A stretch of 13,524 bases of DNA from positions 1-13,524 of the IMG/VR virus record IMGVR_UViG_2534681938_000018; one strand, written 5' to 3'. Below the pieces are notes generated by a model that was given only the letters and a program-made list of their open reading frames with translations, searched no databases and was not told the DNA's origin. The position numbers and the translations under genes are program-made. This stretch comes from a virus (taxonomy: Duplodnaviria; Heunggongvirae; Uroviricota; Caudoviricetes). This document shows positions 4,347 through 5,649 of this stretch, piece after piece. How positions within the stretch are numbered: the first letter of the stretch is position 1; the number at the start of each line of letters is the position of its first letter.

Positions 4347-5138
4347 ATGAATAAACAATACGAACTGGTTGTTAAAGGGATAAATATTTACCCGGATAAG
4401 ATTACTGTTACTGTGGCGCTGGAAACTGGTGGGTATACGTCACTGTTGTTGCCAAATGTGGTGATTGATCTTGATCGTGTTGAAGGTGCCCCGCTGGAGT
4501 TTTACGAAGCTGAGGCGAAAAAGAAGGCGAAGCAGTTTTTCATGGATATTGCTGCCGGGTTATGTGAAGGGAACGAACCGTTGCCGGAAAAGCGCCTCTG
4601 TTCAGAAGAGCGGTATACCATACAAATTAACAATGCATATAACACGATACAGTCAGAAAAAGATGATATCGAATCACGCATTGAAAAACTGGAGAACAGC
4701 GTCGTTGAACTGAATAAAAAACTGTCGGTGCAGATCCCTTCCGAAGGTGAAAAAAAACGCCGTGATGAGCAGTTCGCGGCGTTTTACGATTATTGCCGGA
4801 AAGTGATGAGCAGAAATCTCGCAGAGTGTTTCCGTATTCAAAAAAACAGAGAGCGCTCTGCAAATAGTGAGATTCTGGATAATTTTTTAAAGGGGACGCA
4901 TCTCGCCAGTGATTGTTTCATTGCTCATTCTTTTGGTGGCTTTCATGAGGCCATCAAACATGATGTTGAGAGAAGTCCAGGTATCCTCTGTTCCATTCCC
5001 GTAAGCATCGAAATAGACACAAATACGATAACCGGTGAACTCGTTACCGCCGGAGTCGGTATATTCCGTCATGAGGGGAACGATGCCAAAGGTTCCTTTA
5101 CAAAAATCGGGCCGTTCTTTCTGAAGGTAGAGCGATAG
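4347..5138 (+). CDS. Hypothetical protein with coiled-coil segment, coupled to the holin; no recognisable homology. The last 84 codons (4887-5138) are antisense to the next gene, so the 3' end is uncertain.
   Basis: ATG 4347 lies 3 nt after the holin stop with SD GGAGAG; AT-rich codon usage unlike flanking phage genes; ...ESRIEKLENSVVELNKKLS... is coiled-coil-like. Alternative frames would end the gene at 4890 or 4912. Confidence 0.45.
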   Translation: MNKQYELVVKGINIYPDKITVTVALETGGYTSLLLPNVVIDLDRVEGAPLEFYEAEAKKKAKQFFMDIAAGLCEGNEPLPEKRLCSEERYTIQINNAYNTIQSEKDDIESRIEKLENSVVELNKKLSVQIPSEGEKKRRDEQFAAFYDYCRKVMSRNLAECFRIQKNRERSANSEILDNFLKGTHLASDCFIAHSFGGFHEAIKHDVERSPGILCSIPVSIEIDTNTITGELVTAGVGIFRHEGNDAKGSFTKIGPFFLKVER

Positions 5139-5519
5139 TTTGTTAAGTACCCATCCGACAGCTCGCTCATTTTGGTTTATTTTCGTATCGCGAAACAAAA
5201 ATTCGAAGCGGCCAGATGACGCATGGGTGCAACCAAATACCGGGGCGTATTCATCAACCTTTGGTGTTCCTGAAAACATGCAGTCCGTGCTCTCGAATGC
5301 AGATGAATTGCTGTTGATCCACTTAACAAAAGAAAAAAAGGTCTGAATCGCTTGTCTGTCTGAATATTCAACAAAATCCTCAAGGTGTGTCTCGATCAGT
5401 TCCGGGTGTTTACGAAAGTCATAATATTGACCGGGACGATATTTATGAGTGGTTGTTTTATCCCATGGTTGTGCTCTGCGTCCCTGTAAACGGAGGTCTG
5501 CCGCTGGATAGATAAGCAT
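4887..5519 (-). CDS. Hypothetical protein (210 aa), convergent with 4347 gene; no recognisable homology
   Basis: ATG at 5519 on the minus strand preceded by GGAG (complement of 5527-5530); coding-like codon usage throughout (MLIYPAADLRLQGRRAQPWDKTTTHKYRPGQYYDFRKHPELIETHLEDF...); track ORF 4887..5588 trimmed to this start. Confidence 0.5.
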   Translation of the reverse strand: MLIYPAADLRLQGRRAQPWDKTTTHKYRPGQYYDFRKHPELIETHLEDFVEYSDRQAIQTFFSFVKWINSNSSAFESTDCMFSGTPKVDEYAPVFGCTHASSGRFEFLFRDTKINQNERAVGWVLNKLSLYLQKERPDFCKGTFGIVPLMTEYTDSGGNEFTGYRICVYFDAYGNGTEDTWTSLNIMFDGLMKATKRMSNETITGEMRPL

Positions 5520-5574
5520 AAGTAATCTCCTGGTGGAATGTAATCCACGATCATCCGGGGAAATTAAGAACCCG

Positions 5575-5595
5575 CCAGTGCCCACCACTGGTGGG
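5575..5595. promoter_or_regulatory. Nested palindrome CCAGTG-CCCACCA-C-TGGTGGG in the divergent intergenic region; candidate operator or RNA hairpin
   Basis: CCCACCA (5581-5587) / TGGTGGG (5589-5595) are reverse complements around one central base, with CCAGTG / CACTGG overlapping; lies between the minus-strand gene start (5519) and the endolysin start (5650). Confidence 0.3.
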
Positions 5596-5649
5596 GTGAA
5601 GGCTTAACATATCCAGGGATTCGGAACCGATAAATCCTGATAAATATCC

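Follow-up and report, generated by a model that had tools for sequence, protein, structure and literature searches.

The closest described systems in which an opposite-strand gene sits inside a phage late operon are those of TaiEcA and Tab. The gene taiEcA (orf63 of phi80, encoding 204 amino acids, aa) lies in opposite orientation within the Q-dependent late operon; its product is made in the lysogen and falls with Q expression (PMC11364771). Tab, of the Pseudomonas phage JBD26, is a minus-strand moron inside the late operon that has its own promoter and is expressed from the prophage, and the adjacent plus-strand gene, anti-Tab, is coupled to the upstream late gene and provides the antidote (PMC10884400). 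Here we describe a locus of similar layout in a 13,524-nucleotide (nt) stretch of DNA, the IMG/VR virus record IMGVR_UViG_2534681938_000018 (hereafter the window), which is the late region of an Escherichia coli lambdoid prophage resembling Shiga toxin (Stx) phages. Between the holin gene (S) and the endolysin gene (R) of this prophage, a cassette of about 0.73 kb carries a single gene on the minus strand, which we call the cargo gene. The phenomenon is of a kind already known, a moron in a variable late-operon slot. Judged by the curated family libraries searched, the protein family is new, and the gene may be a lysogen-expressed defence gene that acts alone.

A preliminary description of the window, made from its letters alone, had drawn the slot from the end of the holin gene at 4343 to the start of the endolysin gene at 5650, and the Pfam matches agree with both borders. 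It had further placed two convergent genes in the slot. The plus-strand start codon does lie 3 bases past the holin stop codon (TAG ACG ATG), and the minus-strand open reading frame (ORF) does run from an ATG at 5519-5517 to a stop codon at 4887, with AGGAG at 5531-5527. The two are opposite in orientation, but they overlap by 252 nt (4887-5138), so that one of the ORFs must be partly spurious.

Homologues bear on which one. The cargo protein has full-length homologues at 50-65% identity, and a search of 5.8 billion proteins returned five of the same length at 53-65% identity. The start codon and the N-terminus are conserved among them. Synonymous differences between homologues are saturated (proportion pS 0.65-0.85), the proportion of nonsynonymous differences (pN) is 0.17-0.34, and the ratio of nonsynonymous to synonymous rates (dN/dS) is 0.10-0.23 where computable. 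These comparisons show the predicted minus-strand gene to be real and under strong purifying selection. Within E. coli the cassette is nearly invariant, so polymorphism is uninformative on which frame is selected in the overlap. The converse reading is that the 263-aa plus-strand ORF is genuine and the minus-strand ORF its shadow, or that the segment as a whole is junk, decaying within a defective prophage. It draws on the records, since GenBank and some RefSeq entries annotate the plus-strand ORF alone, and on signs of decay, namely a pseudogene call here by the Prokaryotic Genome Annotation Pipeline (PGAP), frameshifts elsewhere in the window and frameshifted cargo copies. However, homologues from other genera keep the minus frame at full length (dN/dS 0.1-0.2), the plus frame past aa ~170 matches nothing and is broken in a Salmonella homologue (L008), and the intact-looking prophage of strain E2865 has exactly the sequence of 4347-5649 (100% identity). 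We give this reading a close to negligible chance.

The records leave an annotation blind spot. This gene under clear purifying selection is annotated in none of the complete RefSeq E. coli genomes inspected and in none of the eight GenBank records of Stx phages; its place is given to the antisense read-through (an ORF of 263 or 161 aa), to a plus-strand ORF of 95 aa or to a DUF1327 pseudogene. Some draft-genome records list the cargo product as a hypothetical protein. An A7 run lies inside the gene at 5333-5339, and three IMG/VR copies are one A short there and frameshifted as a result. There are also clusters of truncated cargo proteins of 113-122 aa, with 21-25 members. The frameshifted and truncated copies could reflect phase-variable loss, decay or sequencing error.

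The plus-strand ORF (4347-5138, 263 aa) is a different matter. The preliminary description had found neither product recognisable, which is correct for the minus strand but not for the plus strand. Residues 1-96 match Pfam DUF1327 (PF07041; 7.5e-34, 116.3 bits against a cut-off of 25), residues 1-168 match phrog_2091 (2.4e-85), residues 105-167 match phrog_36381, and the first 180 of the 296 positions of phrog_1085 align with residues 1-171. Beyond aa ~171 no PHROG or Pfam family is matched. The premise that the holin gene is normally followed directly by the endolysin gene also gave way, the usual occupant of the junction being a DUF1327/YdfR gene. The first ~250 nt of this gene match 1401 of 5426 complete E. 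coli genomes, at a median of two places per genome. In O157:H7 the order is holin, an intact 114-aa YdfR (L065) and, after a 50-nt gap, lysozyme. The ydfR gene of the Qin prophage presumably lies between holin and lysozyme genes as well. At another locus (L066) a single 297-aa plus-strand gene fills the S-R gap; its product joins the DUF1327 core to the canonical YdfR end, a coiled-coil module B and a module C. The resident gene thus ranges in length from 114 aa (O157:H7) to 297 aa (the full modular form). Literature searches on DUF1327 and ydfR gave essentially nothing.

Compared with the full form, the window ORF is without module C and without the canonical C-terminus. In an alignment of six variants the window protein tracks the DUF1327 family through module B (…RNLAECFRIQKN, ~aa 166) and then diverges. 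The tail past that point is common solely to copies with the same cassette, where it takes the place of module C of the relatives, and the corresponding antisense frame of the Salmonella homologue L008 stays open for 17 codons only. The tail (aa ~167-263) is probably not a functional domain; judged by these alignments, the last ~96 codons of the plus-strand ORF read by chance through the antisense strand of the cargo gene. PGAP annotates just 4347-4595, as a DUF1327 pseudogene "missing C-terminus". Contrary to the preliminary description, which had counted the plus-strand gene as part of the moron, it is the usual late gene between S and R, truncated in place by the cassette, and not acquired cargo.

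In DNA comparisons with relatives, similarity breaks off on the left at 4596, 4706, 4796 or 4843, and on the right at a single sharp breakpoint, 5573/5574. These breakpoints limit the foreign part to ~4844-5573, where a single insertion of ~1.3 kb had been proposed. The upstream region 5520-5649, thought to be private to the minus-strand gene, proved largely shared: 5574-5649 comprises the ydfR end and conserved R-upstream sequence found in every variant, including the cargo-less one. The AT-richness noted for the whole slot was borne out (GC 0.444 for 4347-5649 against 0.541 for 3000-4346 and 0.519 for 5650-7000). The cassette itself deviates in composition from the flanks (GC 0.445 and 0.52-0.54, respectively); AT content is equally high in the resident DUF1327 segment (GC 0.41-0.46). 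The coordinates are collected in Table 1.

Table 1. Features of the S-R slot of the window and of its borders, in order of position.
Feature	Position	Strand	Basis and remarks
Class II (P21-type) holin, left border of slot	4128..4343	+	Pfam Phage_holin_2_1, 4.2e-32; same 216-nt coding sequence by PGAP in E2865
DUF1327/YdfR core	4347..4596	+	Pfam DUF1327; start 3 nt past holin stop; homology with Stx2 phage 86 ends at 4596
Linker and coiled-coil module B	4597..4843	+	phrog_2091, phrog_36381; common to PhiR12_1, L007 and L002; breakpoints 4706, 4796, 4843
Terminator-like hairpin, weak	4836..4861	-	Pattern scan; 6-bp stem with 3 G-C pairs and T-rich tail (TTTTTTGAAT); 26 nt past cargo stop
Cargo cassette, segment foreign to the slot	4844..5573	.	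Similarity to relatives with other cargo lost between 4796/4843 and 5573/5574
Read-through tail, aa ~167-263	4844..5138	+	Antisense of terminator-like site and of 3' third of cargo gene
Cargo gene, 210 aa, predicted cytoplasmic alpha+beta protein	4887..5519 (stop codon included)	-	Homologues, selection, AlphaFold2
Shine-Dalgarno sequence AGGAG	5527..5531	-	7 nt before cargo ATG; read from sequence; TAAGGA at same place in homologues
Remnant of last canonical ydfR codons and TGA, right border of variable slot	5574..5599	+	Aligns with 3' end of O157:H7 ydfR (L065); in all variants
Conserved bipartite motif ATCAGGAT-N-CCnnGnnTATGTT	5606..5641	-	Just upstream of R; one match in window against 0 expected
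Endolysin R, right border of slot	5650..6183	+	Pfam Phage_lysozyme, 3e-25; lysozyme by PGAP

The cassette is present in some collinear relatives and absent from others. As had been suspected for a mobile accessory gene, the minus-strand gene is missing from many close relatives, some of which have other cargo in its place. In PhiR12_1 the slot holds an 86-aa opposite-strand gene labelled DUF1823, in Stx2 phage 86 and at L007 (strain FHI_NMBU_11) a 104-aa opposite-strand gene, at L067 a 79-aa opposite-strand ORF, and in O157:H7 no extra cargo. None of the alternative cargo proteins belongs to a Pfam family. Judging from these variants, the S-R junction is a recombination-prone slot of P21/Stx-type lambdoid prophages that has repeatedly taken up opposite-strand cargo. 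In the window, the ~730-bp cassette (4844-5573) would have replaced the 3' module of a ydfR-family gene, leaving the DUF1327 core and the coiled-coil module, and the plus-strand ORF would then by chance run for ~96 codons through the antisense of the cassette to its stop at 5138. We are highly confident of this structural model, that is, of a truncated ydfR-family gene with a replaced 3' module and a single-gene cassette.

Of the 5426 complete E. coli genomes, 133 carry the cassette, at no more than four places in any one genome and at 200 in all, and it is at least 99% identical in 132 of the 133 carriers. The carriers mostly belong to serotypes of Shiga toxin-producing E. coli (STEC), namely O26, O103, O111, O145, O157, O91 and O113, and the cassette is also in eight GenBank records of Stx1a and Stx2a phages. 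The exact cargo protein is found on at least 1000 contigs. The chromosomes of E. coli E2865 and 08_4358 match the whole of 4347-5649 at 100% identity, and the segment is identical also in Stx1a-converting phages, Stx1_14040 and its relatives.

Homologues occupy other slots. At 17 loci, with homologues of 53-56% identity, the cargo gene lies alone and on the opposite strand between tail genes I and J; one further I-J locus, at ~38% identity, brings the total to at least 18 siphovirus loci. In Xenorhabdus the tail chaperone genes and the tape measure gene flank a homologue. In a P22-like prophage of Salmonella (L011) a 64%-identical homologue lies in the gap between Q and the holin gene, just upstream of the latter, and another Salmonella copy is in a prophage remnant near sodC. 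In the phage contexts examined the cargo gene is always antisense to the late genes. The comparison of contexts shows a cassette that is mobile as a single gene, with at least four late-operon slots besides S-R. At L011, a complete Kiwa system (KwaA 1.5e-92, KwaB 1.7e-111; 5535-11257) lies in the same antiterminator-to-holin gap, ~3 kb away, and this gap looks like a hotspot for defence genes and morons.

These distributions bear on the idea that the two genes of the slot form a pair, the minus-strand gene being a defence gene and the holin-coupled DUF1327/coiled-coil gene its self-immunity partner, an antidote for the lytic cycle. The geometry is that of Tab/anti-Tab and TaiEcA/AtiEcA, a late-strand gene abutting an upstream late gene and followed by an opposite-strand gene, and the plus-strand start at 4347 sits 3 nt past the holin stop. 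However, the two do not co-occur, DUF1327 being in 1401 of 5426 genomes and cargo in 133. Loci of the L002 type retain the cargo gene without the DUF1327 core, and no DUF1327 gene adjoins the homologues of the I-J, chaperone-tape measure and Q-holin slots. Since the two genes occur independently of each other, the antidote idea is unsupported, and we consider it very improbable. As to the L002 type itself (L002, L076 and L077, Stx2a phages of O111:H8 and other strains), the cassette is present without the DUF1327 core, and directly after the holin gene comes a 161-aa plus-strand ORF whose N-terminal 18 aa differ from those of the window ORF and are followed by module B and the shared antisense tail.

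The cargo family, absent so far from the curated libraries, is widespread, and its predicted fold has no close neighbour in the PDB. A profile search of 1.84 billion cluster representatives returned 251 clusters at 50% identity, 183 of them at E <= 1e-10, nearly all of 200-230 aa and aligned end to end. Distant members come from Acidobacteria, Nitrospira, Verrucomicrobia, Burkholderiales and Deltaproteobacteria. Pfam, PHROGs, NCBIfam and PADLOC hold no model of the family, as judged with the 210-aa protein and 109 relatives. A genome scan with the alignment of close cargo homologues found nothing. AlphaFold2, run on a 109-sequence alignment, gave a model with a predicted local distance difference test score (pLDDT) of 95.4 and a predicted template modelling score (pTM) of 0.91, superseding an earlier model of the same type from a 5-sequence alignment (pLDDT 68.7). 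In the predicted fold, two short strands lie at the N-terminus and a long helix at the C-terminus; it further has two helices and a four-stranded antiparallel sheet that packs against helices. Against PDB sequences, a profile search with the family gave noise only, Foldseek with the model found nothing in the PDB at E <= 1e-3, and matches to BFVD structures reached a template modelling (TM) score of at most 0.37.

Sixteen positions are at least 90% conserved family-wide and are mostly charged or polar (R15, P18, P39, I42, L46, E47, D48, F61, N69, E76, D79, R104, R110, N115, G163 and G174); in the closer homologue set W19, E106 and R165 are also invariant. The invariant charged residues (R15, E47-D48, E76, D79, R104, E106, R110, N115 and R165) suggest an enzyme or a specific ligand binder, and the pattern of conservation suggests a catalytic or ligand-binding site on the sheet. 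Relationship to HEPN proteins such as HepS was considered and rejected: the 109-sequence alignment has no invariant His (as in the Rx4-6H motif), and there is no Pfam HEPN match.

Outside phages, no conserved partner gene was seen across 11 loci. In at least 5 of ~15 distinct non-phage loci an immediate neighbour of the cargo homologue matches PADLOC. The neighbours are PDC-S01 (4.5e-116) at L052, an Old/GajA-like ATPase and an Mrr-type nuclease at L059, AbiJ (3.9e-28) at L073, a cytosine methyltransferase and PDC-M33A/B at L081, and PDC-M30A at L082. They are mostly on the same strand and within 100 nt of the cargo homologue; PDC-M30A is convergent. A sixth locus has an nSTAND3 NTPase, HipAB and a Tn7-like transposon. 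Under an assumed background of 5%, the count of defence neighbours has P ~6e-4, which is a rough estimate and not a formal test.

The preliminary description had guessed at an accessory function expressed in the lysogen. For the minus-strand gene the guess fits well, as the gene is antisense to the late operon, like known lysogen-expressed morons, and has distant relatives in defence islands; as a guess about the moron it is still the best at hand, and it fails for the plus-strand gene. Layout and neighbourhood together would point to a defence function, to which we assign a likelihood slightly below even. Since the layout matches the Tab and TaiEcA systems, expression in the lysogen, solo action and dampening after induction are proposed by analogy. 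The cargo gene would be transcribed from the repressed prophage, and its protein would act alone as an anti-phage factor, by way of superinfection or abortive infection. After induction, convergent Q-dependent late transcription, running antisense through the cargo gene, would dampen it, following the "non-contiguous operon" logic of TaiEcA. For this explanation taken whole, the likeliest of those considered, in which cargo would be a lysogen-expressed, stand-alone defence moron, the chances appear evenly balanced.

Several observations weigh against it. The preliminary description had given the gene its own promoter, and no sigma-70 consensus was found upstream of it in the window or in three homologous contexts. 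The hairpin past its stop codon (4861-4836) folds at -8.2 kcal/mol with z = -0.37, like shuffled sequence. In PADLOC-DB 2.0 the 210-aa protein has no match, and the three matches among 109 family members are at chance level. Several non-phage loci are without defence neighbours, and anti-defence or regulatory genes, too, could be associated with defence islands.

An anti-defence role, as a counter-immunity factor against host immune systems, would suit a small, soluble, stand-alone protein that is borne by phages and mobile elements and adjoins defence genes, where anti-defence genes also cluster. However, in every phage context the gene is antisense to the late operon and not in the early operon, where anti-defence would be needed, and it is also found in chromosomal loci without phage genes; such a role is quite improbable. 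Another reading makes the gene a lysogenic-conversion factor that has nothing to do with phages, a cytoplasmic enzyme that would alter host physiology, stress tolerance or virulence, in the manner of sodC, bor and lom. The enrichment in STEC serotypes and in Stx1a and Stx2a phages, the Salmonella copy beside sodC in a prophage remnant and the invariant polar residues, which suggest catalysis, would all agree with it. However, the family is also in environmental Acidobacteria, Nitrospira, Verrucomicrobia and Burkholderiales, so there is no link to an animal host, and the neighbours there are defence genes rather than metabolic or virulence genes. We regard a conversion factor as rather unlikely.

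Returning to the stand-alone defence moron, its boldest form would be a new family of single-protein anti-phage enzymes without a relative of solved fold, carried as a one-gene cassette across late slots (S-R, I-J, chaperone-tape measure and Q-S), expressed from prophages, shut off by antisense late transcription, and protecting major STEC lineages and Stx phages. In this full form the proposal is doubtful. The long-standing linkage of cargo to the tail-tip gene J could mean that incoming tail-tip proteins are sensed and that the linked J allele is an escape variant. If the cargo gene is a defence gene, it adds a family of 251 clusters at 50% identity that extends from Enterobacteriaceae to Acidobacteria, and it is part of the immune repertoire of STEC prophages, where it could influence which Stx phages superinfect and spread. 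A family this widespread and structurally unassigned is a reasonable experimental target, and the holin-endolysin junction of P21/Stx-type phages, as a slot for alternative opposite-strand genes, is worth a systematic survey.

The bipartite motif, with a spacing of ATCAGGAT-N14-24-CCnnGnnTATGTT, is present in 36 of 64 loci, including the I-J loci L037-L048. All S-R variants have it just ahead of R, the cargo-less L065 with one mismatch, and it also lies ~65 nt upstream of cargo homologues in the tail I-J slot; upstream of Salmonella cargo homologues it was not found. It matches no promoter consensus and no Rfam family, and an Rfam scan of 4300-5700 gave no match. As an RNA hairpin it was rejected, as the boxes pair weakly by eye and L014 disrupts the pairing. 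The motif could be a promoter or operator travelling with cargo, or a recombination linker at the cassette borders. At L038 (5873-5890) and equivalent I-J loci, a strong late-strand hairpin (7 bp, 5 G-C pairs) followed by a T run lies downstream of the antisense cargo gene and abuts the ATG of tail gene J, forming a terminator-like site inside the tail operon.

The gene order of the window is TerB-like and DUF3927 genes, a nanS-p type SASA esterase, the class II holin, the S-R gap, lysozyme, Rz, terminase, portal and S49 protease. Compared with E2865, single-base insertions or deletions near 3576, 6916 and 9631 disrupt three of the genes. The SASA/nanS-p esterase is split into 2141-3643 and 3634-3978, Rz has a frameshifted 207-aa form (6482-7105), and the large terminase (7912-9879) is shifted in frame at its C-terminus, the correct end being the ORF 9615-9836. 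These changes reflect either a decaying prophage or homopolymer sequencing errors. Upstream of nanS-p, two small RNAs match Rfam at the gathering level, back to back: STnc100 at 1726-1915 (plus strand, 135.8 bits) and AgvB, an anti-GcvB small RNA, at 1916-1977 (minus strand, 96.5 bits).

How does the locus compare with the known systems? The resident gene has the N-terminal domain of the YdfR/DUF1327 genes of O157:H7 prophages and of Stx2 phage 86 (gp05), and their position right after a class II holin. Unlike them it is truncated and fused to a non-homologous, antisense-derived tail. Like taiEcA, the cargo gene is an opposite-strand gene of ~200 aa that interrupts a Q-controlled late operon near the lysis genes, here on the minus strand between S and R. 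However, the TaiEcA slot lies after Rz/rha and before the packaging genes, and the window cargo, unlike TaiEcA with AtiEcA, is without a dedicated late-strand antidote. Homology with TaiEcA was tried and rejected (hhalign probability 0.07%, BLASTP E = 3.2). With Tab/anti-Tab the locus shares a minus-strand gene in a late operon, ahead of which stands a plus-strand gene coupled to the late gene before it. Tab differs in size and location, being of 83 aa, lying between terminase genes and occurring in JBD26-like phages only, and in that it is obligatorily paired with its plus-strand neighbour, as the window cargo is not. HepS of Gifsy-1 (PMC13043305), a solo prophage defence gene, is likewise often prophage-borne and has no partner gene. 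There is no homology of cargo to HepS or to the products of the classical lambdoid morons (gp15 of HK97, bor and lom of lambda, sodC of Gifsy), and unlike gp15, Bor and Lom the cargo protein is without a membrane or signal sequence. In organisation, however, it is like these classical morons: a single accessory gene of deviant composition, present in some close relatives and absent from others, that stands without a partner.

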